From NCBI GenBank assembly GCA_044892505.1, contig CM097882.1, forward strand, positions 106,516,001-106,580,000: 64,000 nucleotides of DNA. Reading direction: 5' to 3'. A program made the position numbers and the translations under genes. This stretch comes from Schmidtea nova (lineage: Eukaryota). A model generated the notes under the pieces. That model was not told the DNA's origin and made no database searches. It saw only the letters and a program-made list of their open reading frames with translations. The first letter of the stretch is position 1. The number at the start of each line of letters is the position of its first letter. This document shows, piece after piece, positions 6,279 to 54,339 of the stretch.

Positions 6279-6359
6279 TTTAAATATTGAATTAAATTAA
6301 TATTGTTTATATTTGTTTAAACTGACTAATATAATTTACTTACAATATTTATTTGAATT

Positions 6360-6963: not shown

Positions 6964-6994
6964 AAAAGCCAAACTGATTCATAATCATTTTAAC

Positions 6995-23084: not shown

Positions 23085-23960
23085 TGTTGGGTTATTAGTG
23101 TGAAGTCGGTAGTTTCTGACTCCCGTGTTCTCTTTCAATTACAAAATAAACCAAACCCAACACAATAACTTTCTTTATTTTTTTCAAATGATCACAACTC
23201 TTTTTATCACAAAAAGTTACTCAGGCTCTGCACTCTTCGCGTGAGGGTAGAACACCCAATGGGATATCTCCCTCTCTGGTACGTAAAAGATTAAGTTCAA
23301 GTTCTACCTTTGATTTCCTTTCAACGTCTCCTCCAAATATCTTCCAAAGGTTTGATATTCACTTTACGCCTAAAATTTATCTTCGACCAACTGGCAATTT
23401 CGGCACTTTGCTCTCCGTTTTTATACCATCTTTGTGTTGCCATTCTGTCGGTGTAATTGGATATTATCGAATCCGTCGCTTGTAATCGGATCTGATTAGT
23501 CCTGCTTGGTCGTAACTGGACCTTTGCCGTTTATGGTTTTTCCGGCTCTCCCCGGGGCATTCAATTAAATTTGATAGTTTAATGACCTCGCTGATGCCTC
23601 GGGTTTCCCACATTATTCGGATCTCCTACTAGCTCGGGTTTCCCATTATCTCGGGTCTCCCATTAGCTCGGGTTTCCCACTAGCTCGGGCTTCCTATAGA
23701 ATAATTAATTATTTTAATTAATTTGTATTTTCTAATTATTTCCTTCTGGGGGCCCCTTTTTATTTTTATATACCTATATTCGAATTCGTCTCGTCGTTTG
23801 GCATCCTCCCATACCAGTTTCCCCCACTCAAACTTTATTTTAATTTTTTATAAATTTTTTAATTAATGTTTGAACATTAATTATTATTTTTCCAATTTTT
23901 GTATTTTTATTGATTTATGCAATTTTAAATTTATTTTCTGTGATTTTCACAACCCCAACA
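23085..23960 (-). repeat. 5' LTR
   Basis: See element entry; the PBS lies 4 nt inside the LTR end. Confidence 0.92.
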
Positions 23961-27996: not shown

Positions 27997-30390
27997 TAGG
28001 TGGATTGTTGACCGTCAATATGACCTTGACTTTGTTATGGATCATCATCAAAAACTCATCACATAAAACATTATTTAACCATCATGTTACCCACTACAAT
28101 GTAACGTGGTTAATGCAACAAATATGTGATATCCGCAAACAGTGAGCGTCGAAAAATTCGAAACTATGATTGTACGAATGTCACAATGAGATCAAGGGCA
28201 ATCGAAGGAAGGTCCTCTGCCATTTCGTCAGACGATAACTTCTTTATTTTCTAAATTGTAGTATAATTCGAAGCAAAGTTCGGATTCGGATATCGAACTT
28301 TTTGGAGTTACCCAATAAGTCGAGCTTCTTGACGCCGCTTCCGACGAAAGTGGACTTGTTTGCTGGGTCACCATTTCTTTGGGCGATCGATTGCTGGATT
28401 TCTATGTAGAATAATTCCTATCCGAGTCGGGAATAATTCCAAGGCAGAAAGCCCGGTTTTCGGCAGCTGTATTGCCAACACAATGCCTGTGTCTATCTTC
28501 ATTTGGGCAATCTCGGCATCGCGGTTTCGAATGGTCAGTTTCAGCGCCTATATCTGGAACGTATCTTCGGCTGTCTGCTCGTGCAGTAACTTTATCTGTT
28601 TGCACATCTTCTCGATACCGTCCACGTTCATCCACATAGATTCAATCTTTTAGCACCGAGAGCGGAATTTCTTCATGCGTTTCGTTATGGTCCGGAACTC
28701 ATCACAGAGGAGTTTCTTCTCCTCTTCCATCTCGACAAAGCAAATCGATAATCGCCTATATTCATTTCTGTCATTTTTGCCATCAAGTCCATTTTGGCTT
28801 CCATTTTATGTTTTAGGGATAAAGTATAAATGATAATTTTATCAAGCACATTTCCATGTAAGCATCCGCATTTATCTCTCCTTAAACAATCAATATCTTA
28901 ATGAAATAGCTCCTGAATTCCGGCTCTAAACGGCGCTTATTCCCATCTCCAAAAGGATTTATTTTCAGTGGGCGTTGAAAATTAGGATAAAATCTGTTTG
29001 AACTTAATTAGCCTTAATCTAAGACCATGACTATGTATTATAATTCTAAATTGTACTCAAATCAAATTAAACATAATAAAAAAAATTTAAGTTTGCGCCG
29101 AGGCCTTAGTAACAGCAACTGCGAATTACTTAGGAATTTTATTAGTTTTGAACCTTGGATTTCCTTTTTACCCTTATTTAAGTTTGTAAAATTATTGAAT
29201 AATTTAAATTATATTACGGTGTTGAATCAGGACTACCCTCCTTCGTTTTTTCTAGAGAAAAATCGTGTTAAATTATTAAATCTATATAACTAATTTTAGA
29301 TGGTTATCGAAAAATTAAGAGAATCTGCTTGATCAGATTATAGTATGTTAAGCTTTGTTGCATAATCATTTTATAGATTATAACTTATGTTAATTTTAAG
29401 AAAACGGATCTCTGATATCGAAACTGATGGCCAAAGAAGTAGCTTGAAAATTTTTAAAATAACACTGTTTACCATTAATATGTTTAGAATTTGGATTTAT
29501 TTCCTAAAAGAAACGTCTTCGGGTTCGGATTGAACAATTCGATATATTTAACAATTTCTCATGCATCTGTCACTAATGAACAAAGTTCTAAATCTCAGTG
29601 GATTTCACTCAATCTCGACCCTATCGGTGGAATTTATCAAGACAATCGCTCTCGGATTTTTCATACTCTCTCTGTGCTCTAATGGAAATCGATTTACGTC
29701 TCAGTTTATAAATATTACAATCGTAAATCAAGGCAATTTATAAACTGATATTATTATGATTTATAAGTACCGGTGCAATTCATGATTAATAAGGTTAATA
29801 ATTTTATGTGGGTCGTTGTAGAGGATGTCCTTAGATTTTCTATGTAATACAACCAGTTCTGTGGAATTTTATCAATTGACTAACTAATTTTTTTGAGTAT
29901 AATCACCAAATGCATATAATCTTAATGACTTAAAAATTCGGTCTTTCTACCTAATATAGCTGAAATTTAACGGGTGTTATGAACTGCAAAATGATTACTA
30001 CTATAGGATGTTATAAACGACAGGTAGAATAATTAATGTTATAGGATTTGATTGAATGAAATCTTAGATTTTTTTAAGCAGATTGGTTGATTTTATGGGT
30101 GCTTATGAATAAATGAATTCATTTTGGATGAATAAGATGTTATTGGATCAAACGTGTTTATGTGTAATATGCTAGATTTTATGGATGTTGGTGAATGGAT
30201 GAGACTTTTTTTGGATGCATGGAGTGTTATTGATTGAAACTTTAGATTTTTTAAATAATATAACTAAGGATTCAATGATTATTTTCTGTGTGATGATGGG
30301 ATGTAAGAGGTGTTATTCGGTGAAATATTTGTTGAGGTTCCGAGAATCTCAACCTAAGGTTCTTATATAAATAAATAAGTCAACACTGGT
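27997..30390 (-). mobile_element. C-type unit: D remnant, CCGAGGCCTT motif, family-C ORF, conserved 3' block
   Basis: C ORF about 28804-28300 (RMKKFRSRC*KIESMWMNVDGIEKMCKQIKLLHEQTAED...IDTGIVLAI...RRKRRQEARLIG); block 28220-27997 homologous to 45912-45693. Confidence 0.7.
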
Positions 30391-31457
30391 TCGTATTAAA
30401 TCTTTATTACAATAACAAAATAATAATTACCAAGCTAAATCAAAATCAAACAACTTCTTTCAACTCAAAATTTGTCTGTGTGAATGTGTTATGATTGTAA
30501 TATGTAATGCGTGAATGCTGCTCTGAGCTCGATTTACTGTATGCTCTAATTTAATTTTATAGTCGATAACAACTACAAGATTTTTATTTGCAGTGATTTT
30601 TGGGTGATTTGACTGAAAAATCAGTTTGCTAATATACCAAATTTCAGTTGGCATCACATTTCGAGTGTCAACATACTTTGTTTGTCAAAAGTCAATAAAA
30701 TTTCTGTTTTAAAAGTGCAAACTTTAATGGTTACTATTTTTGGAATCATCTCTTTATCCAGCTCTTTATCCTCTTTAATGTTAAAAAGGCATCAATTTAT
30801 ATCGGTTTGGCCTTTATATATCGTTAATTATACTATTTTCTATAGTTACTTCTTTATTTATCTTTTATTGCTTTTGTCAATTTTGTTGTGGTTTTGGATG
30901 GGTTAAAACAAAAAGATAAATACGCTCTAGGGATACCTTCATCCAAACCTAAACATAAAATGCTAACGTGACACACAAGCACCCTCGACTATTTCCTTGG
31001 AATAATCGAGTTGGAAATGTGCAAGGTGTTTGAACAATGATGGGCAGGTGAGCTCTATTGCTAAAACTACTCCCCATTTATGTTCACGGGTTCGTCGCTG
31101 CCGATAGAAGGACTTACGCTTTACTTTCACTTTAATTTATCTGAACTCATTAGCTTTCATTTTATTTTTTCTTTCTGCCCCCTTCTTTACAATATCAACA
31201 GGTAATTCGAACTAACTATATATCGATTTTACTTTAATATTCCTAATGTTTATCATTTATCGAATTTTGTTAGCGCTTTTGCCAATTTGTAACTTGTATT
31301 TACTTAAGTTTTTTATCTTTAATTTGAAATCTTTTAATGAATACTTTATTTTAAATACTTTACTATAAAATAAATACAAAACAAAACAAAACAAAAATGT
31401 AATAAAACCAAATGTTTTGCACACCACAATGATATAATTAAATAATGCTCGGCCATT

Positions 31458-32048
31458 CTATTCAAAATACTTGAGGAAATCCTCGTCAGCTACTGACAAA
31501 TCCGTGGATAGATCTATTTCTGGAAATTCCTTAGTGTGATGTATTATCTGCTGCATGACCTGTTTTTTCCATCGGTGTTGTCTTGCGCCCATCTTGTTTT
31601 TCTTCTTCTTCTTGATTTCAATAGTTGTTACATTTTTTGGTGCAGCTTGAGTTGTTGTTTCCTGAACCTGAGATGGTTCTTCGGTATTGGTACCTTTTGA
31701 GCACGCAGCCTTCTCTTCCGACCAATGTTGATAAGTAATTGGTCGGATGAGTTGTTTTAATTCTCGATCGATGAACGATGTTGTAACTGACTTTAAACAC
31801 TTTCTTAATTCAATCTTCGTTGCGTCGAGCTCGGTTTTAAATTCATCTACGGCTCGCTGTGATCGCTGATTTTTATGAAGCTGGGCCTTCATCTTGTCTG
31901 GACTAAACCAGCTTTTCCGTAATTGAGAGATTGTAGTTTCTGCTTCTTTTATCCTTTCGGATTTTCTAACAATTTCCTTCTCAAGGCTGCGAACGATTCG
32001 CCAAGCTTTATCTAATTCGGATTGCAAGTTTATTGAATTGTTGGACAT
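31458..32048 (-). CDS. Family-B coiled-coil/Arg-Lys-rich protein (196 aa), intact
   Basis: LRKSWFSPDKMK...ATKIELRKCLKSVTTSFIDRELKQLIRPITYQHW shared with 35500-36033; basic tail KKKKNKMGARQHRWKK; conserved 3' block at 31119-30890. Confidence 0.8.
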   Translation of the reverse strand: MSNNSINLQSELDKAWRIVRSLEKEIVRKSERIKEAETTISQLRKSWFSPDKMKAQLHKNQRSQRAVDEFKTELDATKIELRKCLKSVTTSFIDRELKQLIRPITYQHWSEEKAACSKGTNTEEPSQVQETTTQAAPKNVTTIEIKKKKKNKMGARQHRWKKQVMQQIIHHTKEFPEIDLSTDLSVADEDFLKYFE

Positions 32049-32779
32049 TTTCTATAAATCAATACGGTTCATTAATACAAATTTGGTTTGATTTGAATAA
32101 ATCTGTTAACTTTCATAGTTTCCTTTGACAATTTCTCCGCGATTTATTTAATTATTATGTCCCAATTAGGAAGTGAAATAACATACATGCTATAATTTCG
32201 ACACTGTCGCTATATACAGCGATCAGATAAATACATTTATAATCTTTATTTCATTAATTTATGCCTGTGCTACGTACAACAATCAGGATAATAATTTACT
32301 AAAATTAAATGAAAACAATTAGGTTCTTCTGCCCTATGTACAGGGATCAGGATAAGTGATCAAATTTCATTATTATTTAGTTTGGTTGATTTATGCTAAA
32401 AATGCGATCAACTTTGTCTAGTTGATTTCTGTGTGGTAGATCATCTACCCACCTGAATTATTGTATTAGAGTTATTGATTTTTGCATTCTAATGTGCACT
32501 CTAAACTTATGTTCTAAACTTTGAACGATGATGCTAGCCGCTTTATGCAACCAAACCCCAGATGTGACAATCTCAAAGAACATGGTAATACTTTGCTGCC
32601 AAAGGTGAAATTTAAATTCAAAAATAAAACTATTTTCATATAAAAACCAAATCAAACTGGCTATACTGCTCAGTGATAATTCGTTAAAGCATGGTTAAAA
32701 TAATCCTACCCCCCTCGTGGCACTTGATACCAGTCGGACGGCCTAACTGTACGGAGCAGTTATCTACTCGGCACAGTCT

Positions 32780-32992
32780 GCCTCCTTCCATTGATTTCAC
32801 GATGGACAGGAGCCCCCTTGAATAATATATAACTTCATGATGTAAAATAAATACATTATATAAATAACTTCAATTCGCCTCCTTCCACCGATTACACAGT
32901 GGACAGGAGCGCAAGTAAATCACAAATAATCATTAAAAACGCAATTTCAATAACGTTGCCTCCTACCACCGATTACAGAGTGGAAGGAGCGC
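32780..32992. repeat. Three tandem stem-loop repeats
   Basis: GCCTCCTTCCA...TGGACAGGAGC-type units at 32780-32813, 32877-32912, 32958-32992. Confidence 0.8.
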
Positions 32993-34646
32993 AAATCAAA
33001 TCGTAAATCATAAAACATTTTCATCGAAAATTATATTTAATGAGCAATGACAATAACAGAAAAAAATGATATCATAATAGCTTATATACAATCAAAAATA
33101 TCAAACTTCATACCTTTGTTGATCCAAATTGTCTGTTCAAAAATTTCAACTTTTAGCATAAAAAACTTAGGCCTTAAAATTGTCTGAATCTGCATCAGTA
33201 TTTATACTGATCAGATCAGTTCATTAACCAATCAGCGTGAAGCTGATGTTCTAACATAATTTTATTAAAAATAAAATCAATTTCATTAAAAAATAATCAA
33301 TTTCATTTTCTTGTTTAAATTAACTTAAAATTTCTTCTTTAATTCCTATTTTAACATAAAATAATTATATTTTAGACTTTTATCTTTCATTTTTTCGTTA
33401 CATTTCAACATATCTTATTTATTTCTAATCTTTTGTTGGGCCCGCCAAATCACCTAAAATCACAATAAAAGAACAAAAGTATAAAACAATAAGGAAATAA
33501 TAAACATAAAAATAACCATAAAAAAACAAATTAAAAATAAGAATAAAATGACAAATAATATTTGATAAGTTTCCAGTAAAAGGAAATTGTGAAAATAAAC
33601 CGGTAAACAACAGCAAAAGGGGGCCTGAAATAAGAAAAGATAGAATAAATTAAAATAATAGTACAAATAATTAATTAATTACTCGAAAAATCAGGACCAC
33701 CCAGCGAGAAACCGGAAAAGGAAACAAAATAATGTTTAGGTTTAAATAAAATAATAAAAATACTTTGATGGACGGTCTGATCCTGATTGGTCAATCCAAC
33801 CAGACGGATCAGTATAAATACCGATCCGAAAATCACAACTTTAACTTTTTTACTAAAACTTAACTGTTAGATAAAATTTTTGCAAAACGCACTTTTTACT
33901 AGAACCAATACCACAAACGTTTTCGAGAAACATTCTTAATTTTCAAACCCGAAGAAACATTCAAGTACGGAACGTAACATTTTATTTTATTTATTGTTTA
34001 TTTAATCTTTGATTGTATATTAATGTTAATGTACCCATGATTTTTCATCTATTATAATTTTATGAAACTTTTGATTTTTGCTATCTTAATTTATTAATGC
34101 ATATAGTTATGCTTCCTAGGCTGCTCACGCGGCAAGGGAGCCCGAGTCGTCGTCGTGGGGCCTCAGGGTCTCACATGGCGGTTCTACCTTTTTCTAAAAA
34201 TCATACAATCATTTTGAAAATCTCAGTTTAATCAACAAGTTCTACGTCGAAAGTTTTATTTTTGATTTTATAAATCCGGTTGCACAGTGGACATAGCGTG
34301 AGGGCTCGCGGAAAAGATTTGAGGGCTCCCAGAAGGTGTGAGGTTTACGACGAAGGGCAGGAAACCGACGACCGGTTCCCCCATTAGAATGCGTATATTT
34401 TAAACCCAGGAGAGTAATTGAGGAGCGAAAATTGGGTAAGAATTTACAATAAATAATCGATCTTGGTGAAAATTTCGTAGAGTCCAAAGTACACCAATAT
34501 GACTATCGATACAATTAACTTACAATTCCAAATTATGATGACGATTCGAATTCCGATCGTAATCGACGGAATTCCAATTGGTAATATAAATAGATTTAGG
34601 CCGATCGCTGTATATAGCGCGGTAACCTTGAATATTTTTATCCTGA

Positions 34647-35318
34647 ATGTCGTACATGGCACAGGGAAATGTAAAAGATGTTAATCCGACCGTGGTATAT
34701 CGCGGCGAAGACCAATTAGTTCCCTCAAAAGTTAAACCATTTTTCTCTACTGAATGCTATGTTTATTACCAGTTAATTCCCCGACAACAATTTTTTGGTT
34801 GCATCATACTTGCTCAAATGTTTAATAAACTAATACAGATGTCAACAGCTGATGTTATGAAAAGATTGACCCAAATTCGAAATTTGGAACAAGGGAGTGC
34901 AGAGAGTGGAACGGTCTCTCCATTCAAGGAGCTACCTGCGCCGATATTGCGGACCATAAATGCTCAAATGTACAAGTGGAGGCGCGGATTTGGTCGTAAA
35001 TGCCCGTTTTCCATATGGGCTGGAGGAAACGATCGGATACTCTACCGAGGAGGACCGAATTGGCCAATTTCACCAAGGCCTTATTCGAGGAAATTTGGGC
35101 GGATAATCATTATGATCAATGACTCAGAGGGACGACCGGGTCGAATAATTTATTGGGGACATATCCCTCGCCGGGAGTTATGCCAATTGGGACTACAAGC
35201 GTTTCTGCCGCGGAAACCGTTTGGCAAGGAATGTCAGGATGGGCAAACCCTATTTTCTTGGGCTCGCCTTCGACGGATGCCGATCAACAACGAACTACAC
35301 AGCCTATTTCGGCGATAA
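34647..35318 (+). CDS. Family-A protein of unknown function (true start possibly ATG 34840)
   Basis: PILRTINAQMYKWRR...YRGGPNWPISPR...RIIIMINDSEGRPGRIIYWGHIPRRELCQLG aligns by eye with 40503-41144. Confidence 0.65.
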   Translation: MSYMAQGNVKDVNPTVVYRGEDQLVPSKVKPFFSTECYVYYQLIPRQQFFGCIILAQMFNKLIQMSTADVMKRLTQIRNLEQGSAESGTVSPFKELPAPILRTINAQMYKWRRGFGRKCPFSIWAGGNDRILYRGGPNWPISPRPYSRKFGRIIIMINDSEGRPGRIIYWGHIPRRELCQLGLQAFLPRKPFGKECQDGQTLFSWARLRRMPINNELHSLFRR

Positions 35319-35499
35319 AATTTTCTGACAATGATAATTATAAATAAAAATCTTATTGTTTCTTAATGGTCTTTGTTTTTGAATTTTTGAATTATTAAGT
35401 CTATCATGTTCTCGACCAAAAAATCATGTACTCATATTGTAATTTTAAGCATATTTTAACCATAAAGCGACAAGGCAGTTATTTTAAATCAATTATAGA

Positions 35500-36033
35500 A
35501 TGAATACTGATCTGGCACAAAGAGAGTTGGAAAAGATGTGGCGAATCCAGAGAGCCCAGGACAAGGAAATGGGCCTCCTCAAAGCGCAACTATCCAAAGC
35601 CGAGGCGCAAGTCACCTATTTGCGAAAAAGCTGGTTCGCTCCGGCTAGAATGAAGGAACAGATTGGGAAAACCGAACGTGCCCAGCAAACCGCAGCCGAT
35701 TATAAGATGGAATGGGAAGCTACCAAAATAGAGCTTCGGAAATGCCTCCATTCAGTGACTGCCTCTTATATCGAAAGAGAATTGAGAGATCAAATCCGGC
35801 CGGTCACATATCAGGAATGGACGGCGGAAAAGAAAAGCGTCAACTCGATTGGCACGGACGTCGATGATCTCATTGAAGACCGAAACAAGCCAGTTCCAGC
35901 AATCAACCCGTCCACTTCAACTGCAAATGCGCACCCGAAACGCAAGCGCATCGGGCAGAAAAGGCGAAGGCAAAGAAAACTATTCGCGCAACGATTGCAG
36001 AACCAAGTTGACGGCCTGCACAAAATGACATAG
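35500..36033 (+). CDS. Family-B coiled-coil/Arg-rich protein (177 aa), intact
   Basis: LRKSWFAPARMKEQI...QTAADYKMEWEATKIELRKCL; tail PKRKRIGQKRRRQRKLF; AATAAA downstream. Confidence 0.8.
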   Translation: MNTDLAQRELEKMWRIQRAQDKEMGLLKAQLSKAEAQVTYLRKSWFAPARMKEQIGKTERAQQTAADYKMEWEATKIELRKCLHSVTASYIERELRDQIRPVTYQEWTAEKKSVNSIGTDVDDLIEDRNKPVPAINPSTSTANAHPKRKRIGQKRRRQRKLFAQRLQNQVDGLHKMT

Positions 36034-36330
36034 GAGGAATTATTAACAGAAATATTTCCCCCAGTCGGAGTTTTCACCGAACTAATTAAAGATTAAATAA
36101 ATTCTCGTATTCTCGTCAAATTTTTGTTGTTTACTTAAATTGGTTTAGTTAACTTAACGAATAATTAGATACCTGTAATATAAAAATATAAATTCATCAC
36201 ACAAAATACCTAAGAAAGGTAAATAAATAATTAAGTGAGCATTATGTTAAAAACCCTTCATGCAGAATAAGAGATGTTAAAGACAAATTTTCTGAAAGTT
36301 TATTGTGGAGTACATAAGCAGATGATTAAA

Positions 36331-36470
36331 GCGTAAGTCCTTCTAACGGCAGCAATGAACCCGTAAACATAAATGGGGAGTAGTACTAGCGATAGTGCTC
36401 ACCTGCCCATCATTGTTTAACCACCCTGCGCATCACCAACTTGATTATATAGGGAAATAGTCAAGGGCGC
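36331..36470 (+). ncRNA. Conserved structured cis-RNA element 3' of ORF B
   Basis: Homologs at 15843-15975 (+), 31119-30978 (-), 42779-42645 (-), partial about 56640-56690 (+); compensatory base changes in stems (see findings). Confidence 0.6.
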
Positions 36471-39400
36471 TTGAGTGTATAGTTGCAATTTTATGTATGA
36501 TCATGGATGAGGGATCCCTAGTCATTGTTAGAACATTTTTCATCTAACCCCTCCATGAACCCAGCACTTTTTATAATATTAATTATTTTATTTCTATTTA
36601 TTCTAATACTTTGCATTTAAATCTTTAGGATAATATTATCTTACTTTATCATATTTATTTTATTCTATTATTATTGTTTATTTATTTAAATGTTGGTCAT
36701 TTGGTGGACCCAACAATTTTTTGTTTTAATAATCATTAATTTTAGTTACCATATAATTGTGATTGACATTTAATTTATTTTTGATGAGTGTTATGTTTTC
36801 TAAATAACCATAAAATTCTATGGGAAAATATTATGAAATGAAATGATAAAAATTTCTTGAATTGTAATTTTATTTATTTTTATAAATTTCACATGCATAT
36901 AATATATACCCATTAGTATAGAAACCCGTATATACTTTAATTAATTTTGACTTCACGTGTTTTAAATATGAATTATTATGTTAGTTTTTCTTATTTAAAT
37001 TATTCCCAATCGCTATGTTCTCCTAAAAGCTATCAAGGAGCAAGATGAAATTATTATTTATTTCGATATGAATTTCAATATGAATAGCACTATCTATAAT
37101 AATTAAGAAAAAAGAACTAAGCTGTAATAATTTATATCATAAATTATTTATTTTTTTAATTATGTTTAATTTGCACTTTTAAGTGTTTTTTTCATTACTG
37201 ATTTGATAGATTTTTTGAAATTCCAGAAAAATTCGAGCACTAAGTGCTTTTTGTTTAAGCAGTAAATATTTAAGCACTTAGTGCTTTTAAATGAAAAGAA
37301 ATTTTCTTTAAACTAATAATAATTATAATAATAACAATAATACAATAATAATAATAACAGCAACAACAATAATAATTTTAAAACTACAATAGTTAAAACA
37401 ATAATAGTAATAATAATTTCAGCAATAGCAGTAATTTTAAACTAATAATAACAATATTTTTTTACAATAATAGTAATAATAATAATATTTATTTCACTTA
37501 CTCACACATTACTACATCTAAACAAAAAAAATTTAAAATCAATAAATTAAAGAACACCATCAAAACCACAGTTAATTTAGTTCAACAGAATAAACTTAAA
37601 TGATCAAGTTTTTCAAAAGTGGTCACGATTGTCGTTTCGTCATTGTTGGCTTGATTAGTTCCGCTTGTGATCTACATATATGTGAATTCTGTACTTATTG
37701 GTACCTAATGTGTAATATTTTAATTTTATTACACTTATGACACTTCCATCTTCTAACATATTTATTTCCTCTGTAAGCAATGTAACTAGTTTTATAGGAT
37801 TTTGTTGAATGAAATATGTAGTTTATAAGTAGTATAGTTGGATTTATAGATGGTTATGGATAAGATACTTAGTTTGGGTGCATGAGGTGTTGATTGATGA
37901 AATGATTAACTTGATTGCAAATATAGATGCTTGGGTCACTTCTTGATTTTTAGAATTGGTATTTTATTGAATAAAATATATGATAGGATGCTATTGGGAT
38001 TTTATAAAGTAAGAATTAAATTTAAAATTTATAATTTTTACAAAATGGTTAAGGTAAAATTGAATTTACAAATGACGAAAATAATCATGAAAAATTAAAT
38101 TTATAATTTTTGTAACAATAAGGGATTTTGGGATTTTTAGGTAACTTACAGATTTTTCAGATCACATAAAATTTTATTAATAGATTTGCTGTCTTTTATC
38201 TAGAATTTCGGTTGGAATTAATTTTGATTTAGATTAAAATTTTCCCATTAAATTATAAGTCAAAATATTCCAAATAATTCGCTTATAATAGCAATGGTAG
38301 TTAAATTTAAGTTTTTAATCTAAAATATTTTATTACCTAATTTTAAAAGTTGAAGCATACTCTAGTAGCTAGAGTCTAGCTAAATAAAATTAAAAATAAA
38401 TAAAACTCATCAACTCAAATCAACCCAATCACATTCCAAGTCTTTGATGCCATAATATAGAGCCCATAAAACGTTAATCGACACTAGGAGTTATAGTTAT
38501 CGGTTAAAAAATTTAATTGATATTGAGACATTTCTTTCTATAGTTTATAGTGTTACGCTATGCCTCTCACTTTACTAATTAATTTATCAGATCTTCTTGA
38601 TTATTCTTAAAATCAAAACGAAAATTATTAAAATTTACTCCGTTTCTCTGGTATCTTAGCAACGATACTAGTTAAATTATGGAAATAAAGAAGTCTAAAT
38701 CACCCTCTGGTTGTCAAAAACTCAAGTATCATACTGATAATTTAAATTATATCAAAAAAATATTGGAAACTTCTGATTTTTATTTAATATCAAACTCAAA
38801 TAAAACAAAACTATAAAAAAATTTATTTTTTGAAAATCACTAGCAAGTCGGTAAATTCTCCAGTCATACCGATTTTCATTGGTCGACGTCATTATAGAAA
38901 ATGATTTATATAATATAGATGTCAATTTGCAAAAAACAGATTCCCCTTTCATGGTAGTAAGATATATATGCCTTGTAAATTTATGAATATTATTTTATGG
39001 TTTTTGAATTTTTATGTTTAATGAATTTTAATACAATATGTTTGGTTAGAACAAACATACAGTGGCGGACTGACCCGGGTTGCCGGGTTGCGTTAGCAAC
39101 CCGGGCCCTTTCCAAATGTAAGGGATCCGGGCCCAATGTAGAATAAAAATATATATTTTAGTTAATACCTATTGATTTGTACTTTATGTTGGGCCAGGCA
39201 AATCAGGCATCATCTAGAAAATAATATGAAATCAATAAAATAAATGTACAAAAAACAATAACAAAATAAATTACCAACACCAAGGTAGCAAAATAAGCGG
39301 CATGATCTAAAGGTAATAAAACCATAAATCAAAACAACATAAATCTTAAAAACTCACCCATGCGAATCAGATAAAATCTGAAAATGACAGCATGTGGGCG

Positions 39401-40502
39401 GACATCACCGGCCTGAAACAAAAATAAAAGAAAATTAAATAATAACAAAAGAAAATTACCGCATGAGTTAACAAACAAATCACTGAATTAAATTAGACAG
39501 CGAAAAGCCGACAAACACAAAAGAATAACAAGACATACACACATACTCGATGCTGATTGGCCGACCAACAACACCAAACTAGTATATATATACTGAAGTC
39601 AAATCAGTATTGGTATGTCATTTTTTACCGAGTGTAAGTTACAGTACCAACTGATAACTCGTAACCTTGCGAACAATATTGTGAATCAACTGGAAATAAA
39701 AGGTATAATTTGAGTTGTTATTTGATTGATTTTAAACCCTCATATTAAAATGAATAAGGATCGTCCCGGAGGCCTAATGGCCTGGCGGGACTCTCGGCCT
39801 TTCAGCACAACATATTTTCATATGAGGTGCTGATGCGGCGGGACCATAAGTGTTATAAATATTTCTTGATTGGGAGAGGGGTGCACATAGGATATCAATA
39901 ACCACCGTACCAATCATTTTTCCGTCAAGGTAAAGGTAATTCCGAATACATTCTACTAGTCATTGAAGGTTCAAGACAAAGGGTACTCATAAGTAGGTAA
40001 CAACTCGAAATGTCGAATATACATCCGATAGCAGATATGTAACTAGTAGCGAGCGGTAGGGTTAATAGCACATTCCCGACAAGGTACAAATACATGAACC
40101 CATCCTACAGGGGATTACCCTAAATACGAGGCCCAACACCCAAAACCGCCCAGTAAGTGACGATCATTATTAGTTATTGGCAAGAGTGATGATGACCAAA
40201 TGGGGGATGCCTGATAAAGATAAAAAGCATAAAGATAATCTCGTAAATAATGATGTGTCGATCGCGATGCAGAAATAAATTGATTAAAACTGAGTTCAGA
40301 GTAAATCAGTTCAGAATGATCTAAACTCACAACAACATCGTCCTACGCGGTAGAACCAGCGATCGTGATATGACCAACTTATCAGATAGATGAAACCTAC
40401 CTGAACAAAAATCACCACCCGTGTAGCTTAGTCGCGTATATATAGCCGATCAGTGTTGACATCTGATGATAATAAAACCAAACCAATTTCTGTTCAGACA
40501 AA

Positions 40503-41144
40503 ATGAAACAAGAGAAACTTTGGAAATCGCCCCTGGTCTCGCCACCCTCATCAAATGAGAGTCGAACCTATCGGAGGAAGCGGCAGGTCCGATCTATCCA
40601 TCCTGTGGCTAATCGCAACTACATGACCGAGATCCAAGGAGAGAAGGACGCTCCACGGCCAATCGCCGAACAGGCGCGTAGACATTTACGTCGATGGACA
40701 CGACGGCACATGAACGTGGCCGCTAATGTTCCAGCCTGCACATTCCGAGTGCAATTACGATGGGAGGGAGACGTAGACTGGACGTCATCACCTAGGCAGC
40801 CGGAGCAGAGACCCACAAGGTGGTTCTCTCAATTCGTAGACGAATCCGGACAACCTCGCTGGTTGTTAAGTTCAGGAGCTATGACCGGTCCCTCACTGTA
40901 CCAATTCGGATATCTGCTACTGGATAGGCCCCGGTGTAGCGACACTGGGGAAATCCAGCTCTACCCGAACGCTCCCGGAAGCGTCACTTTGGATCTCCAT
41001 CCTGAACCGAATGATCTCCGCTTATGGGAGGTGTTTATACACCAAGGCAAGTTGAGTTGGCACCCATCCCCGGAGCTATATCTCGCAGACGGGACCAGAC
41101 GAGACGATAACCAGGCCGACCAAGAATTACGATCTTTCTGCTAG
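40503..41144 (+). CDS. Family-A protein (213 aa), intact
   Basis: GC-rich intact ORF; RWFSQFVDESGQPRWLL, YQFGYLLLDRPRC, EVFIHQGKLSWHPSPELYLADGTR conserved with 55130-55710. Confidence 0.8.
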   Translation: MKQEKLWKSPLVSPPSSNESRTYRRKRQVRSIHPVANRNYMTEIQGEKDAPRPIAEQARRHLRRWTRRHMNVAANVPACTFRVQLRWEGDVDWTSSPRQPEQRPTRWFSQFVDESGQPRWLLSSGAMTGPSLYQFGYLLLDRPRCSDTGEIQLYPNAPGSVTLDLHPEPNDLRLWEVFIHQGKLSWHPSPELYLADGTRRDDNQADQELRSFC

Positions 41145-41358
41145 GAGAAAGAAGGCCATGGCCGAAAATCCGGAGGTCAAACCAATCATGTGTTATAATT
41201 AGAAATAAAAATCTATCTTTGTGAAAACAATCTTGTTCTGTTTTGTGAATGAATGTAAACGAGTGCGTGAGTAAGGAACAGTTGGGTGATACTAAAAATA
41301 CGAATAGGGAAACAAACAGATTTTTCGTTACATAAACTAAATATCCAATTTTGTAGAT

Positions 41359-41922
41359 ATGAACACCGAAAACTCACGCGATTATAAGAAAGAGGCTCGT
41401 GAGTACAAGGCTCGCTCCAAGGTCCTCGAGAGCCGCTTACGCCAGTTAAGCGAGGAGCATCGGCGGGTGAAGACTACGTGGTTAAACCCTGAGAGGGTCA
41501 AGGCAATATTACAGGCGAGATATCGCGCCGAACGGACGGCCGAAGACCAGTCGAGGGAAGTGGCCGCCGTCAAACTCGAGTTGCAAAATTATCTAAAGGC
41601 CTCAACGCAGGAGTTCGTGACTCAACAGTTACGTCCCATGATCAGGGCAAGCACGTTCAATAGATGGGTAGACACGATCGCTGTCACCACAAGCACTCAG
41701 ACAGAAACCGAATCAAACACAAAAATGACTACCCCATCGATAGTGATAACTCCGGAAGGTACTAAGCGGACCAAGCGTCGAAACCGCCTCAGGGCGAAGA
41801 AGCGTCGCGAGCGTCAAGCCTATGCAGAGCGTTTAGGCATCGAAGTCGATCTATTAAGCGGACTCTCCGAAAAACAGTTGTTGGATGTGATCCGGCCATC
41901 TATTTTGTTAAATTATAAATAA
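41359..41922 (+). CDS. Family-B' coiled-coil/Arg-rich protein (187 aa), intact
   Basis: KTTWLNPERVK...RTAED...VKLELQNYL...QQLRPMIR; tail KRTKRRNRLRAKKRRERQ. Confidence 0.8.
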   Translation: MNTENSRDYKKEAREYKARSKVLESRLRQLSEEHRRVKTTWLNPERVKAILQARYRAERTAEDQSREVAAVKLELQNYLKASTQEFVTQQLRPMIRASTFNRWVDTIAVTTSTQTETESNTKMTTPSIVITPEGTKRTKRRNRLRAKKRRERQAYAERLGIEVDLLSGLSEKQLLDVIRPSILLNYK

Positions 41923-42599
41923 ATGTATCATTGCTGAATGACTTGATTTGTTATCAGGTCTCGCTTTCCACTCAAATAATTTCCCTTTACACATGGGTAG
42001 GTTATCAAGGTGGATGAGAATTTTCGGTTATATTACTGAGATGGATTTCGTGTTTTGATGTTTGGATGGGAAATAGTTTACAATAGGGATTATTGCGTCT
42101 TGTGATGGATTAATGATGTAAAATGTAATGATTGTGTGGTGATATGTATGTTTGCTTTGATAGATATAGTATGGATTTTTCAGAAGAGTGATTGCGTGTA
42201 GTGGAATGTGGGATAAATCGTGAGGTTAGATAGGCAATTTTACGATGGATGAGATTGAATGAGTGCTTGTGAGATTTCCTGGAAGTATGATGCAGATTAA
42301 CGTTATTGAACGAAATGATATAGTGTGTGTGTGTTGATGAATGAATGGATTTTTGTAGTGTTATATATGGATATTACTAATGAATGAAATGGATGTTGTA
42401 TTTTGCAAGGATTTTATGGGTTAATTTTCATGAAATGAATTATGGATTTTACAATTATATAAATATACAAAGGTATTTTTAAAATTTTTATAAACTTTTT
42501 GTAATTTATTATACAATTAACTTTCGAATTAGGAAAATTTATATAATATTATATATTTTAGATTTCGTTTTTTACATTTTAACTTCTAAATTCTATAAT

Positions 42600-43680
42600 A
42601 CTGCTGGGTTCATGGAAGGGTTAGGAAAAATGAAATACTAATTGGTGCTATTGACCGTTCCCTATACGATCAAGTTGGAACTGCGCAAGGTGATTGAAAA
42701 ATGATGGGCAGGTGAGCTCCATAGCTGAACTACTCCCCATTTATTTTCACGGGTTCACGCTGCCGTTAGGTCTTATGCTATTAATTTTTACTCAATATTT
42801 AAAGGTGATTATTTGATAAATACTATAATATTTTCGGAAAAATATTATTTACTTCATTTAGAAACTATCTTAAGCTATAGCAAACCAAAACGAAAATGTA
42901 TAAACACCGAAAAAAAATTTTATTTTAAACAAAAATCTAGAAAATTCCAGGTGAGTGGAAAAATCTCAGGTAGCAGGTCTACTTCAATCATTTCTGACAT
43001 TTGATCAATTTTGACATGCAATTGTTGCGCGAATAACTTTTTCTGTATCCTGCGTTTCGAACCAACTCTTTTTCTTTTCTTCGGGTTGTTGCCTCAATGT
43101 AGGACGTCGTTACAGAGTGGAGGCACTTGCGCAACTCGATTTTGGTGGCCTCCCACTCTACCCTGTACTCATCTGCGGTTTGTTGTGCCCGTTCGGTACG
43201 TGTTATTTGCTCCTTCATTCGGGCTGGAGCGAACCAGCTTCTACGCAGATATTGGATTTGCGCTTCGGCCTTGGATAATTGGGCTTTTATTTGTTCGATT
43301 TCTCGTTCTAGACCACGTCTAATTCTTAGAGCTTTGTCTCGTTCGGCTGCATGATCCGAGGTTCGATTCGTACTATAATAAATAAAGTTTACGTGACCAA
43401 TTTGTTAGGAAGACAAACAATTTAATTATTGTTAACATTTAAGTAATTAAGTAGTTAACATTTAAGCACTTTAATTTTTGTTAAATTTAGGTACTTTTCT
43501 GTTTTTCCCTCTCCGATTTGTTGTTGGCCTCCTCACCTATTCAATTTATTTTAAACTTGCAGGTTATTTATTATTACTTAATTATTTAGGTTTTTCTATA
43601 CCTCTTTAAGGTTATTTTATTATTTTGTTATAATTATTATCCTCTTTTATGCATTTTTAGGCTATTTGGTGGGCCCAACA
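42600..43680 (-). mobile_element. Internally deleted B-type unit
   Basis: 5' terminus TGTTGGGCCCACCAAAT (43680 downward); B ORF about 43360-42985 closely similar to 35500 copy but missing the middle; conserved block 42779-42601. Confidence 0.75.
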
Positions 43681-45376: not shown

Positions 45377-48300
45377 TGTTGGGCCCAGCAAATAAGTAAA
45401 GTATCTAGAAATAAACAGTGAAAATAAAGAACAAATCAATAATGAATTACCACAAAGCAAATGATTAATCTAAACACAGCAAAACGTAAATAAAAATACA
45501 ATAGAAATAGAAACAAACCAAAAAGCAAGTAGGTGAACCACTCAAGATTGACAGTGAGTGGGTGAACAGCACCAAATACACTGATGATTCCGAAATAAAG
45601 ATAGAAGTTAACAATTAAATCAATAAGCAATATAAGTACACCTACTACAATAAAAACAAAACTACACAAAGTTAAATAATAACACTCACAAAGGTGGTGG
45701 GTTGTTAATCGTCAATATGACCTTGACGTTTCTATGGCTCTCATCAACAACTCAACACATAAAACATTTAAACTACCATCTTGTTACCCGTCACTATGTA
45801 ACGTTGGTGCTGTAACAAGTGGGTGGGTATTCGCAATCAGTGAGCGTCGTCAATACGAAACTATGATTGACCGAAAACCTCCTGGGTCCAAGGGCTACCG
45901 ATAGAAGGTTTAATGCTCATTTTGTCCCTACTATGTATTATTTACTTCAGAAAAACTTCATGAACTTCATTTACTATTAAACCTCAGTTGATTTTACTAA
46001 ATTTATTCCGTACATCACTTTATTCAATCCAATCATTCAAACCAATAAATCAAAAAAAACCAAGAGAAAACTTTAATGTTAGCAAAAAAAAACAACAACA
46101 CAAACTACAAAGAAAAATAAATAGATACACGATAAAATATTCCTTGTCAATTAAATCACAAATGAGTAATGTCTATTACGTCTGAAGATTCCTTGCGGAT
46201 TTGTCCCAGCAGTCTCGCTTCCTGCCAACGTCTTCGGCGAGCCCTCACCCCTTTATTGGGTTTCTGTCTGGCTGTTTTGGCGGGAACAGGAGGTGTCGAT
46301 ATCTGTTCCTCGACCCTCACTGGGAACAACTCTTGAGACAGGCAGGGTGATTTTGGCAGGACGGCAGCAATGAGGCCACTGTCCAATCTCAGTCTTTCAT
46401 TTTGGGTTTCCAATTCCCGGATTGTGACTCGGCACGCCTCATTGGTACAATCTCATTGCGTCGTCCGCAGCCTGCTGCAACAGCATCTGGTTTTGTTTGC
46501 GGAGTTTGTCGACGGTCTCTTTGTCCCACCACGTCGACTCCATCTCCCGGCATCGCGCTCGGAACTTCTCCATCCGAGAAGTCATGATTTGTAGCGCATC
46601 TGTATTTGAGGTTTTCGCTCTCTCCATCTCGGCGAAACACTGGTCTACCCGGCGATTATGGCGGGCATTTTCCAAAATTAATTTGTACATCTCTTCGAAT
46701 TTCTGTTCTAAATTCATTTCGGACATCTAAAAATTATACAATCATAACCCATTCCAGTCGTCATTTGACATTCAATTTCAAATATTCATTTTAAATCAAT
46801 AAAATAAAATCATTTTGATCGATGAACATTTATCGATTTTTTATAACCAACACAAAATTTATCTCAAATCACACATTCATTATTGCTTACAATGTTTACC
46901 CTCAAATATACCATCGCCAACTCAATTCGGGGATTAATTCTTCCTATAAAAATACATCTATTCGGGGACTTTCAATCGCTGTTAACTTTATCAAATTGAC
47001 CATTATACTCAAAGTGGCACAAATTTTTGTGTTTTCCATATTTAAAATTTAGAGAAACTTGAATTACATCTTAATCCTATTGTCTATCTTGCTTTATAAA
47101 CATTTTATTATTACAATTTATCATTTGGACTTTTCAAAAATTCGCCGAGGCCTTAGCAACGGTAATAATATACCTTCTATAATTTGCATGTTAATTTTAT
47201 TCTACTGATAATCCTCTTATTTATAAATTTTAATCTTTATTTCCAATCTCGAATCAAATTTCTAATTAGGAAATCCGATCTCAACCGCAACTCCTTCAAA
47301 ACCCTCAACGTTTCCCCGCCTTAAGGAAATTCTAAATAGACGGGTAAGCAAAATTCCTTGATTTCTATTGGGTAATTTTTATTATAACAATTTAAATTCT
47401 ATAATATAACTATTGATTTTAGGTAGTTATTTTTAGTAATGAGATTCCCCTCAATTTTGATTCTCAAACTGGTAAGTTACATTTAAATTATTAGTTTTAT
47501 AATTACAGTTTCCTCCTTTTAGTGGTTCAGATTTCCAAGGGAGAGTCATCATCAATTTCAATCGTAGCTCCAATCTTTAAAACATCAATTTTCTACTGGA
47601 GTTTTCAACTAAAGTAAATTTAACATTTTGTAGTTTAATGTTATGATTTTGACTTTTAGCTAAGGAAATTATTGGGAAGATTATGCGAGGGAATTTTTCG
47701 GGTTTTCGTTCTGGGAATTTATGCTTGGAATTTTATTATCCTGAATTTTTTATGCCTCACAGATGAACATCTTTATTCCTGTATGTACTTTTATGGTGAG
47801 TTATTCAATGATATTTTGTAATTTGCTCCATTTTAAGTTAAATAAAGCTTATTTTGTTATGTCTTTTTATTTCAATAAAATTTATACTATAAATTGTTAT
47901 CTGCATAAAACTGTTAGTTTCGTAATTCGTTTTTAAAGGGTATAATCAGGTATAGAGGGTATCTCCTGATAATTATAGCTGACTATTTTTCGGTATGGGA
48001 TCTTTGGGTGTAGCTTGCGGTATACAAGATGGGGGTGATTGAAGTAATGAGATTCGAACGTATATACGGTGGAATGAATGGTTATGTATGGATGTTATAA
48101 AATTTAAATAACTACATAAATGTAAAAATTTTTCACATAAATTCTGTGATACGGGACTTTATAGTCTGTCAATAAATAATTTTCGGTATTTGTATATGGA
48201 TGTTGTTTGTGGATGAAATGGATAGTTTAAATGATGAGGTGTGAAAGAATGAAACCTTTGCATAGTTTAGATGGGATATGCGTTTTTTATGAACAATGAG

Positions 48301-48720
48301 GGATACAATAATTCGAGTTTGTAGGTCGTTATCTTTTTACGGGTTCACTATGAATTTTCATGGGGACAGTTGTAGGAGATTGTATGTGGTTATATGTTAT
48401 TGTATGTGTTAGTATGTTGAAAATGGTATTGTTGTAATGGGCGTAAATAATGGGTGTGATTGTATGAATTTGCAGGGATTATCTGGATGTATGATGCTAG
48501 TTAATACTGTTCAATGAAATCATGTTGTGTATGTTGGTGAGTGAATGCATTGTTTAGGGGATTATTTAATATAGAAAATCCTATTGATTGAAATGTGGTA
48601 GTGTGTGTGATGGTAACTAAATGTATTTTGCATTGCATTAAGCATGGGTGTTACTATTGAATGAATTGGGTGTAAATTTTTGCAAATAAGGATGCATTAT
48701 AATTTGGAGATATCGTGGGG
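45377..48720 (-). mobile_element. C-type unit: D remnant (48720-47990), motif 47162-47145, family-C ORF, 3' block (45912-45693), CCCAACA terminus at 45377
   Basis: Terminus GCTGGGCCCAACA on the - strand; its reverse complement resembles the 39187 terminus over about 45 bp. Confidence 0.7.
46156..46726 (-). pseudogene. Family-C coiled-coil/Arg-rich protein, one frameshift near 46440
   Basis: ORFs 46439-46726 and 46156-46413 together match 50487-51059; tail RARRRRWQEARLLGQIR. Confidence 0.8.
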
Positions 48721-50486
48721 GTTTTTAATAAAAATAATATATAATATACGTAAAATATTTTCCAAATTAAAATAATACTAATAATTTTATAATGATTTTT
48801 ATAACTTTTTAAATTTATAATTTTATGAAAATAGTAAAATTTCTAAATTTTTATAATTTATATTTTGAATTCAAATTTCTATATTTTAATATTAATCGTA
48901 AAATTTTCTATAAAATCTCGAATTTGGAATTTTATAAGATGATAAAATTTCTAATATAATAATAATATTCTCGATTTATAATTTTTATGGATTTCAATAT
49001 AAGTTTTGATTTATAAATTCTTATAAATTTTTTGGTTTACAATTTTTCATTTTTAAAATTTTTGCAACATAATAAAAAGTAAATTTTTATTTTTTGATCA
49101 ACACGGAATCCACATAATAATAAAATCTTTATCCATAAATTTAGAAATCCAAATAAACATTCAACCTAAAAGTTTTATATACTGAATAAAAATAAAATAA
49201 AAATAAGTTATAAATTTTTCAACGAATATTTTTCGACATCGAGTAAAGTGAATTTCGGTTTCGTCCGATCATAAATTTCCCAACCAAAGTGCACGCGAAT
49301 TTTTCGGGACACTTCACTTAGGAACTTCAGGCTCACGAAAACAAGGTTTATTGGAAAATTATTTAGATGAGGAATGAGGTTCAATTCAGATCGATCAATA
49401 TTTGTCCTAATAATTCATTTCATTTCGTAATCACTATATCGGTTTTGAGCATTATTTCATATGATTCTTTTTTCAACATTAGCTTCCATTTACTTGCGTT
49501 TTCGGATAAGATGACAGTTGTTGCGAGAGTGAAGGCGACGACGAGTAAAATGTTCTTGCATAAATTATTTTTCATAATGGAAAAGACGTTGCTGGAGAGA
49601 ATCGTCTTTACGTTTGCATGTGGTGTTGATTTTTAAAAGATAAATGTCAAAAAATTATAAATTCAGATAAACTACATTTATTATAAATTAAATATCTTTA
49701 ATATAACAACTTGCCTTTGGCCAAGCCACTGTTCCCCAGTTGGGATGAAGTGAACATGGATGTTTAGGCTATTCATCTGGACTCGGAAATATGGGCTGAT
49801 CGATTTACGTATCGAACCAGCGATCCGCTCAGGCTACTTCCACCCGATCGGCACAAGGCCAGACACAGGCTTCAGGGGGTACGGAAGTAAAAAAAATTAT
49901 TTATTTGATAACTTTTATTTTAGAATATTTATTTGGTAACTTTCATTTAGCATACTGAAATTTATAATTATGAGAACCTGTGACAATGTTAATGATAAAC
50001 AAAAATTTATGAGATAAAATCATATAACTATAATATTTTCCTTATTGGTGGGTTGTTGATCGTTAATATGACCATGACGTTTCTATGGCTCTCATCAACA
50101 ACTCAACACATAAAACATTGAAATTACCATCTTGTTACCCGTCACTATGTAACGTTGGTACTGTAACAAGTGGGTGGGTATTCGCAATCAGTGAGCGTCG
50201 TCAATACGAAACTATGATTGACCGAATATCTCCTGGGTCCAAGGGCTACCGATAGAAGGTTTTATGCCCGTTTTTGTCCCCTTAAATTAACCGCTCTATC
50301 ACTGTAGATTATTCATACGAGATCTTCATTTGAATATTTTCGCTAGACTGTGATTTATTTATTAATTAATCAATGTATTTCAGTGTTTTTGTTCTTATCT
50401 TTATCCCCATTCAATCACACAAAAGAAAACTAATCGAAAACTTATAATTATAGCATAAAAATAACGACATTTATTACAAAAATCAC

Positions 50487-54200: not shown

Positions 54201-54339
54201 TCGAGGTTTCAGACTCACCTTGATTGTCATTTTTCACCAGTGTAAGCCATTGTTATCTGAAACAACTGTTTGGAAAATCATTGTATCTGTGAAATCTATC
54301 AGCAATAAAAGGTATGTGGTAATTTAGCTTTGTTTTGAG

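Follow-up and report, generated by a model that had tools for sequence, protein, structure and literature searches.

The locus and its target-site duplications

The window analysed here, 64,000 nucleotides of Schmidtea nova contig CM097882.1, carries on its plus strand a 3,133-bp unit with two open reading frames (ORFs), a likely promoter and conserved RNA structures, inserted into an older relative that lies on the opposite strand. The features are as follows.

30884..33429, minus strand: rest of the host LTR, with TATA box, ORF B homologue (31458-32048) and structured block
33430..33433, plus strand: target-site duplication CTTT, left copy
33434..36566, plus strand: solo LTR of Burro-type Ty3/Gypsy, 3,133 bp, TGTTGGG...CCCAGCA, with ends as in the paired LTRs of four full elements
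33783..33820, plus strand: likely promoter (function inferred), made up of a CCAAT box (CTGATTGG) and a TATA box whose spacing is conserved in 15 LTR copies of several families
33962..33979, plus strand: likely splice donor(s), judged from sequence, with a short non-coding exon 1 ahead and a T-rich tract behind
34112..34190, plus strand: two GC-rich hairpins, UCAC loop on the first (fold of -33 kcal/mol for 34120-34200), whose stems vary in other families on visual inspection
34601..34622, plus strand: bulged hairpin, one or two per LTR, with compensatory stem variants (the search pattern was selected for pairing, so this is partly circular)
34839..35318, plus strand: ORF A, 159 aa, a small alpha/beta domain by prediction, without a family match
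35343..35348, plus strand: AATAAA behind ORF A
35500..36033, plus strand: ORF B, 177 aa here, with coiled-coil-like N-terminal half, TQT-like motif and an acidic/hydrophobic tail shortened in this copy
35938-35979, plus strand: arginine-rich motif of ORF B
36096..36101, plus strand: AATAAA behind the full-length ORF B frame
36335..36480, plus strand: two-hairpin structure common to diverged LTR families
36567..36570, plus strand: target-site duplication CTTT, right copy
36571..36715, minus strand: where the older host LTR begins (5' start, TGTTGG.., A-rich), outside the unit
39187..41952, plus strand: LTR of the D+C sister family, its 3' part absent here
42602..43680, minus strand: solo LTR of a relative, internally deleted, duplication GTAT/GTAT

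The original prediction had the unit start at TGTTGGG (33434), with an A-rich 5' tract, a structured block and an interior devoid of reverse transcriptase, integrase or primer site, and with related starts at 39187, 43680 and 45377; all of this was borne out. About ten full or partial relatives occur in the window (at least eleven had been claimed). The right end, in contrast, had been set at 36715, with the flanks CTTT and ATTT read as one aged duplication and TGTTGGG...CCCAACA as the two ends of a single element. The unit in fact ends at 36566 (...CCCAGCA), where a perfect CTTT/CTTT duplication encloses it, while the host LTR, running from 36715 to 30884 on the minus strand (2,695 bp without the insert), has an ATTT/ATTT duplication of its own. 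Since the terminus at 36715 has this separate duplication and also continues to the left of the insert, the inverted pair represents two independent insertions. The joint 33429-36567 without the insert is present in contigs from all four runs examined (library type not given).

Of 4,426 candidates 40 were scored, and every one matches the unit far above chance, with main segments at 82-92% identity. Relatives stop at position 3133 with perfect duplications, and 21 of the 24 loci with both ends resolved show a perfect 4-bp duplication; an inverted start appears in only two of 54 examined 3' flanks, at differing distances. A preference for insertion into related LTRs was not shown: six of the 54 flanks lie in a related LTR, two of them perhaps through tandem rearrangement. 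Two small Gypsy LTRs, 18234-19115 and 23080-23960, had been likened to the unit for their ends and A-rich start; they share its terminal letters and nothing further, with no BLAST match.

Probable promoter and RNA structures of the LTR

The CCAAT box (33783) and TATA box (33810) were confirmed, and GT followed by T-rich sequence lies 110-150 nt past the TATA box in most LTR families. From these signals we infer how the promoter is used, where splicing and polyadenylation take place and where U3, R and U5 meet: transcription from the CCAAT/TATA promoter would make a short first exon, spliced to ORF A, to ORF B or to internal accessory ORFs, and every spliced mRNA would finish at an AATAAA of its own, after the manner of complex retroviruses. 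An AATAAA in the leader, which would fix the R/U5 border, was sought and is not conserved. The variant at 43680 has no promoter; being unique among the 40 scored matches, it is uninformative on whether a promoter is needed.

The block at 36335..36480 is 98.9% identical, without gaps, in 29 relatives. Among 16 aligned copies, which are kin, so that the covarying cells stand for fewer independent events, 18 of 31 pairs show two-sided change and 95.9% of cells are paired; none of 500 shuffles reached this covariation, and slid controls gave 2-7 pairs. Folded as a single sequence, the block is nothing out of the ordinary (z = -1.37), and Rfam returned no match at gathering score and none better than E 1.9. 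A likeness to the twister-sister ribozyme was considered and rejected, since it is without Rfam support and the stem that it requires is not kept in all families. The structure probably has a part in poly(A) control or in packaging, or is bound by the ORF B protein.

The sequence leaves some room for a different start of the genomic RNA, near a conserved CCTTCT motif at about 36340, which we consider a tentative option, less probable than a start at the upstream promoter. The genes would then lie in a long U3 with their own internal promoter, the structured block would be a short R/U5 like HIV TAR with its poly(A) hairpin, and A and B could be read from the 3' LTR as is MMTV Sag. Such an arrangement would avoid a strong-stop DNA of 2.7 kb, and MMTV Sag likewise has its acceptor just upstream of its LTR ORF, according to passages of PMC3026287. 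An AATAAA/CATAAA-like hexamer does sit within the stem, on the 5' arm of the first hairpin, but it is variable (CATAAA, AATAAA, CATGAA, GATAAA); moreover, no TATA box is conserved upstream of the structured block, and the sole conserved CCAAT/TATA pair is that at +350-385. Placing the genes in U3 is a variant of our best explanation, from which it differs in the start of the genomic RNA.

The two genes: constraint, proposed function and processing

Both ORFs are under purifying selection. Across 19 copies dN/dS is 0.24 for ORF A and 0.13 for ORF B, as against 1.1-2.4 in shifted frames, and the mirror antisense frame carries 4-10 stops; gap openings per 100 nt amount to 0.05 and 0.00 in the ORFs versus 1.13 and 0.98 in the spacers. 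Private variants are less constrained than shared ones (pN/pS 0.51 versus 0.22 for ORF A, 0.37 versus 0.14 for ORF B). Selection measured in this way, between copies, reflects the replicating lineages and not a function of the solo copies. One LTR subfamily has neither ORF and another has no ORF A, and thus the genes are not needed in cis.

ORF A had been given as a 223-aa frame from 34647, whereas its conserved start is at 34839. No internal stop is present in 135 of its best 150 matches, chosen by score. Two models of it reached pLDDT 51 and 58, and fold searches with these models were uninformative, giving nothing at E<=0.001 and a best Z of 3.4. A weak profile match to ORF D (E 0.0026, 87 columns, probability 11.5) suggests that ORFs A and D are likely, if unproven, homologues. 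ORF B stops here at codon 178, whereas it has 198 aa in 21 of 30 relatives, and its basic motif is kept in 30 of 30 aligned members, 16-89% identical to the first, across LTR families. Library searches yielded little: no Pfam family at useful score for ORFs A, B, C, D or the ORF at 50616; nothing at E<=0.001 among near-length candidates for ORF A alone or for the A/D and B/C alignments; no Atlas matches to ORF A and only sub-0.9 matches to ORF B; no match to ORF B among 1.84 billion representatives; and only weak coiled-coil designs in PDB sequence searches. These blanks are no proof of novelty, as the libraries may lack planarian repeat proteins.

Our best guess is that ORFs A and B encode accessory regulators of the element. 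By likeness of motifs alone, namely the helical N-terminal half, the arginine-rich motif and the acidic tail, the ORF B protein is most likely a nuclear factor that targets the RNA or promoter of its own element, and the LTR genes and hairpins together are likely to form a self-contained expression and control unit. The alternative that the two proteins are effectors serving the host, like the IAP of Burro1, or domesticated genes, appears unlikely. It would agree with the richness of the element's internal region in RING, TRAF, BIR and ankyrin modules, with the stem-cell protection reported for Burro1 in passages of PMC13465017, and with the many stop-free ORF A frames among the score-chosen matches. 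Nevertheless, the weaker constraint on private variants is what would be expected if selection acted mainly during replication, and neither protein resembles a host family.

The prediction of two ORFs, each with an AATAAA behind it (35343 and 36096), was upheld. An acceptor-like YAG lies just upstream of the ATG of ORF A in 30 of 30 copies (as CAG), of ORF B in all 27 that keep the ATG, and of 13 of 15 ORFs of other LTR families. Trans-splicing occurs in flatworms, and an acceptor at each ATG, an AATAAA behind each ORF and a 180-bp spacer make up an operon-like layout, which would suit maturation of a polycistronic LTR transcript by spliced-leader trans-splicing instead of cis-splicing to the first exon. 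The donor-like GT and T-rich tract conserved just past the TATA box in most families speak against this, and we hold it to be improbable. A solo LTR would stay a complete expression unit, since it contains the promoter, the genes and the poly(A) signals alike.

Full-length elements and comparison with known systems

Four full elements carry LTR pairs in direct orientation that are 99.1-99.6% identical, with TG...CA ends and matching 4-bp duplications in each case; since these duplications are distinct, it is unlikely that the paired LTRs are assembly artefacts. The LTRs of the unit's family measure 3.1-3.3 kb. Three of the elements have internal regions of 18.8-23.2 kb and total 25.2-29.7 kb, and the fourth reaches 59 kb with nested inserts. 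In all four a primer site lies 6 nt past the 5' LTR, which is an exact 18-nt complement of the genome's tRNA-Pro(TGG) plus CCA in two and has one mismatch in the other two; exact matches to LTR end plus primer site number 497 genome-wide. Upstream of the 3' LTR, six of six elements examined have a conserved GC-rich GGGGTCCCC-type motif instead of a plain purine run, and none has a canonical polypurine tract.

A Pfam scan of one full element gave, in order, zf-CCHC, Monjiviricetes fusion glycoprotein, RVP, RVT_1, RT_RNaseH, rve, ankyrin, MATH/TRAF and RING. The env domain (PF24664, E 1e-18 and 6e-49) lies upstream of RVP, and a single frame of 1,581 aa runs from it to the reverse transcriptase. 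The Pfam pol order (PR-RT-RNaseH-IN) and the 4-bp duplication would fit Metaviridae. The family had been thought undescribed and without a transposition enzyme; the internal region of the full-length copies has instead the Burro layout, its domain order being the one given for Burro in PMC6431247. The two readings originally offered are thereby separated. A giant solo LTR with its own multi-gene cassette is supported by the test proposed beforehand, as direct pairs flank gag-pol and primer site, whereas mobilisation of a passenger in trans is not needed, the enzymes sitting in the internal region.

A TIR or passenger DNA element, Ginger-like or other, was rejected, as no inverted repeats of one insertion lie inside one duplication. 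Trans-mobilisation of a non-autonomous element bounded by TGTTGGG...CCCAACA, whether by the integrase of a Gypsy element or by a transposase, has practically no chance of being correct: a 21-bp near-inverted pair does exist at 33434 and 36715 and most copies are single, but relatives terminate at position 3133, the distal terminus belongs to another insertion, the inverted start is rare in the flanks and paired copies flank gag-pol.

We therefore regard the unit, with high confidence, as a solo LTR of a giant Burro-type Gypsy element with two selected genes that are likely accessory regulators. It would be the residue of recombination between the two 3.1-3.3-kb LTRs of an env-bearing element of 25-30 kb, and full-length copies would supply reverse transcriptase and integrase. 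Most copies of this LTR are solo LTRs; the subfamily end motif occurs in at least 804 copies and the structured block in at least 1,689. LTR-LTR recombination, the usual host route to disarming an element, leaves a working cassette if the solo LTR retains its promoter, both genes and the poly(A) signals. The genes housed inside would also explain the length of Burro LTRs. The internal layout has been published (PMC6431247). For the LTR-borne two-gene cassette with its covarying RNA, the literature searched held no description; Grohme 2018 and Lee 2026 may have one. PIWI knock-down strongly derepresses Burro elements (passages of PMC8532177), and stem-cell survival is reportedly aided by Burro1 (passages of PMC13465017), so that the new structured RNA and the two new protein families of Burro LTRs are directly open to study in a standard regeneration model.

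Compared with the description in PMC6431247, the elements resemble Burro (Burro1/GYPSM1, Burro-2 to -4), whose internal region can reach 25 kb, in exceeding 25 kb and in having long LTRs, CCHC knuckles in Gag, an in-frame env with mononegavirus-like fusion protein between gag and protease, and the order PR-RT-RH-IN. They share with it ankyrin, MATH/TRAF and RING in the unit's family; the sister family with 5.4-kb LTRs has BIR plus RING (E 2e-14 for BIR) and a weak PF11976 match (E 0.02). This sister family and the D+C family have the same primer site and homologues of ORF B. Weak matches were obtained for SUMO/ubiquitin-like Ubiquitin_4 (E 0.07) and, at the expected place, for dUTPase (E 0.17); BIR is not listed among the Pfam-scanned ORFs of the unit's family, and a BCL2-like segment found no match there. 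Unlike Burro, the unit's family has LTRs of 3.1-3.3 kb, places a RING-only ORF behind the primer site and keeps TRAF apart in an ORF farther downstream, and the text of PMC6431247 that describes Burro names neither LTR protein genes nor RNA structures. Ogre of dicots, likewise a giant Gypsy element, has LTRs measuring 1.9-6.5 kb and additional ORFs without assigned function; these ORFs are internal, unlike those of the unit, and no in-frame env is described in that text (PMC6431247).

MMTV encodes Sag in its LTR and also has Rem and its response element, but this is one gene in the 1.3-kb LTR of a vertebrate retrovirus (passages of PMC3026287). The unit, without sequence similarity to MMTV, carries two unrelated genes, each with its own AATAAA, downstream of CCAAT/TATA in a Gypsy LTR. 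In HIV Tat/TAR and Rev/RRE and in HTLV Rex/RxRE, a small accessory protein with an arginine-rich motif is matched to a structured RNA. There is no sequence match between these and the unit, for which binding, transactivation and export are hypothetical; in common with them it encodes a small accessory protein with an arginine-rich motif, and the LTR holds bulged hairpins as well as a conserved RNA structure. ORF B and the LTR RNA possibly form a Tat/Rev-like pair. More speculatively, and with doubt on our part, Burro LTRs could be self-contained regulatory operons in which ORF B binds hairpins of the same LTR and switches between spliced accessory mRNAs and genomic RNA, with many hundreds of solo LTRs supplying proteins in trans: a Tat/Rev-like circuit that would have evolved independently in an invertebrate Gypsy virus.

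Nested LTRs and the boundaries of the unit

The features first noted for the unit are present in the window: TGTTGGG at 33434, an A-rich tract, CCAAT at 33783, TATA at 33810, two ORFs (A and B) with AATAAA, a GC-richer block and CCCAACA ending at 36715. Its relatives are many, with 4,426 candidates in the searched assembly (1.25 Gb), 40 of which were scored and show main segments 82-92% identical. Nearly all alignments to the 3,282-bp query end near query position 3133, a first hint that the right boundary had been misplaced. Both ends were resolved in 24 of 30 loci fetched for a boundary survey and unresolved in 6. A perfect 4-bp duplication flanks TGTTGGG...CCCAGCA in 21 of the 24, two of the 21 representing a single duplicated segment; the other three are a 5' LTR with a primer site after it, a 3' LTR, and a copy without duplication. 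The features concerned are as follows.

LTRs, genes and related sequences in the window
33434-36566 (+): window copy of the LTR, CTTT at both flanks
34839 (start): ORF A, 159 aa
36335-36480: structured block
36715 to 30884 (-): related host LTR, ATTT at both flanks, interrupted by the window copy
31458-32048: ORF B homologue of the host LTR
27999-28739, 45695-46726, 48582-54212, 55130-56825, 15187-15540: fragments belonging to the 5.4-kb-LTR family, another D+C LTR and an ORF B homologue that has decayed
21652-22545: Retrotrans_gag ORF of a small Gypsy element

The stretch 36567-36715 is, on the minus strand, the start of the host LTR, which resumes at 33433 with its own CCAAT/TATA, ORF B homologue and structured block. 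As CTTT occurs twice around the unit and ATTT twice around the host LTR, the flanks once read as at best an aged 4-bp duplication are instead halves of two separate perfect ones, CTTT/CTTT and ATTT/ATTT. An insert-free joint, skipping 3,137 bases (the insert and one duplication), is present in contigs of all four sequencing runs examined. An inverted LTR start lies downstream of relatives in only 2 of 54 flanks, so that 36715 does not hold as a family boundary and the TGTTGGG...CCCAACA arrangement reflects nesting rather than a family feature.

The parent element and its families

The suggestion that the unit is a giant LTR was supported by direct copies flanking gag-pol with a primer site, in four LTR pairs with matching 4-bp duplications at all four full elements. 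Five paired places fetched among the genome matches gave three of these pairs (99.1-99.6% identical), a solo LTR copied by segmental duplication, and an inverted pair; the fourth LTR pair came from a separate genome search. The full elements measure 25.2, 27.7, 29.7 and 59.4 kb, the last containing nested inserts. Six bases past the 5' LTR, an 18-nt primer site is complementary to a tRNA encoded in this genome, tRNA-Pro(TGG), plus CCA. In one full element, Pfam domains run in the order RING, Gag zinc knuckles, Monjiviricetes-type fusion glycoprotein, protease, RT, RNase H, integrase, ankyrin repeats, weak fn3, and TRAF zinc finger with MATH; the polyprotein of the inspected copies is interrupted by stops or frameshifts. 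This layout is that of planarian Burro elements, whose in-frame env between gag and pol was called the first such case (PMC6431247, section 7), and its domains place the parent element in this known kind. Judged by the element alone, the host is likely a planarian.

No plain polypurine tract was found 5' of the 3' LTR in the six elements viewed; all six carry there a conserved GCGGGACGCAATTTT...GGGGTCCCC motif (L040:6317-6336, in one fetched locus, and equivalents). The same locus has an internal accessory region (L040:497-2842) with signal-like, fibronectin-III-like and transmembrane segments, which resembles a surface receptor and is not among the Burro motifs given in section 7 of PMC6431247.

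Exact matches genome-wide number 804 for the LTR end of the unit's subfamily, 1,689 for the block motif and 497, across families, for LTR end plus primer site. Since the first 100 entries for this LTR end include 9 with a primer site after them (lists compared by eye), roughly four in five LTR copies are likely solo. The 3' motif of tRNA-Pro(TGG), the tRNA that serves these elements as primer, has 1,106 matches genome-wide, and a tandem array of these genes with a 308-bp period lies at about 459.61-459.66 Mb of contig C1 (L051). At 477.05 Mb of C1 (L049/L050), two 5' LTRs with primer sites, 99.6% identical, stand inverted about 2 kb apart.

Burro LTRs form a nest in the window. Another LTR of this kind is the D+C unit at 39187: its relatives terminate in ACACCAGCA, show 4-bp duplications in 9/9 complete relatives with the start found, and often have the same primer site after the LTR end. 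The ORF at 50616 comes from a family whose LTRs measure about 5.4 kb and which has the same primer site together with BIR+RING, TRAF and PF11976 modules; of these families it is the closest to Burro1 as described. Just right of the window (L159-L161), an element of this family retains its accessory BIR+RING and TRAF ORFs and lacks most of gag, env and the RT-RNaseH-integrase core. LTR subfamilies differ in gene content, one being without ORF A and one without both ORFs. The latter, of about 1.6 kb (L104/L105, C1 5.56-5.58 Mb), retains TATA, leader hairpins, structured block and primer site, forms pairs spaced 11-12.5 kb apart, and is possibly non-autonomous.

Two neighbors are of other kinds. 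An ORF cluster at 5062-7468, in which weak Pfam hits point to an A32-like packaging ATPase, is likely a Polinton/adintovirus-like remnant; similar genes are nested twice inside one full Burro element. An ordinary small Gypsy element occupies 18234-23960 (-), with 882-bp LTRs 98.4% identical, and no sequence link between it and the giant LTR was found.

Genes, signals and RNA structures within the LTR

ORF A is full length in 23/30 loci; ORF B has 198 aa in 21/30, the window copy being shortened to 177 aa. Pairwise dN/dS is 0.24 for A and 0.13 for B (19 equal-length copies each, leaving out truncated copies, three 158-aa copies, one duplicate and one sister LTR), with controls of 1.1-2.4 in shifted frames and 0.26-0.29 in the mirror antisense frame, which is full of stops. 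Indels are common in the spacers and nearly absent from the ORFs. These patterns mark A and B as real coding sequence under selection; constraint is weaker in private than in shared variants, which fits selection during replication. No match to either protein was found in Pfam, PDB sequences or the other protein collections searched, and predicted folds were too weak for use. Across homologues of B and C, 16-89% identical, conserved features are an N-terminal half, helical and with a W-x-x-P motif, a TQT-like stretch resembling an LC8-binding motif, an arginine-rich motif and a tail that is acidic/hydrophobic; D is probably a distant homologue of A.

The CCAAT/TATA pair, present in all LTR families examined, has 110-150 nt downstream of it a GT resembling a splice donor, with a T-rich tract. 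Among these non-independent copies, YAG lies directly 5' of the ORF A ATG in 30/30, one base before the ORF B ATG in 27/27 retaining it, and within 6 nt of the ATG in 13/15 ORFs of other families and 3/4 internal accessory ORFs. Such signals suggest that a single first exon is joined by splicing to one or another terminal exon.

The block is 98.9% identical, without gaps, in 29 relatives, the adjoining spacer 87%, and has no family match in Rfam. In 16 diverged copies picked for diversity (14 of 15 cluster representatives and two window copies), its two hairpins show two-sided changes at 18/31 pairs, a count that overstates independent events, the structure being derived from the same alignment of related copies; none of 500 shuffles reaches it, slid controls give 2-7 pairs, and G-U pairs fall on the sense strand. 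The leader has further hairpins, one bulged with compensatory variants. The hexamer GCTCAC occupies loop positions both in the 3' structure (36397-36402) and in a leader hairpin (34122-34128), possibly as a shared protein-binding motif.

The two-gene cassette and its precedents

We have described an LTR retroelement that encodes its own enzymes, duplication-flanked solo LTRs, selected LTR genes and a conserved RNA fold. Recombination between LTRs is an established source of solo LTRs and would have formed those seen here. The LTR promoter would drive spliced expression of A and B, and the B product may act in the nucleus, probably binding RNA. Both genes could lie within a very long R/U5, or else in U3 behind an internal promoter; under either reading alike, the solo LTR retains the whole cassette.

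While the element kind, Burro, is known, no description of the two-gene LTR cassette and RNA structures was found in the literature searched, and Grohme 2018 and Lee 2026 may mention them. The closest precedent for a gene located in an LTR is MMTV (PMC3026287).
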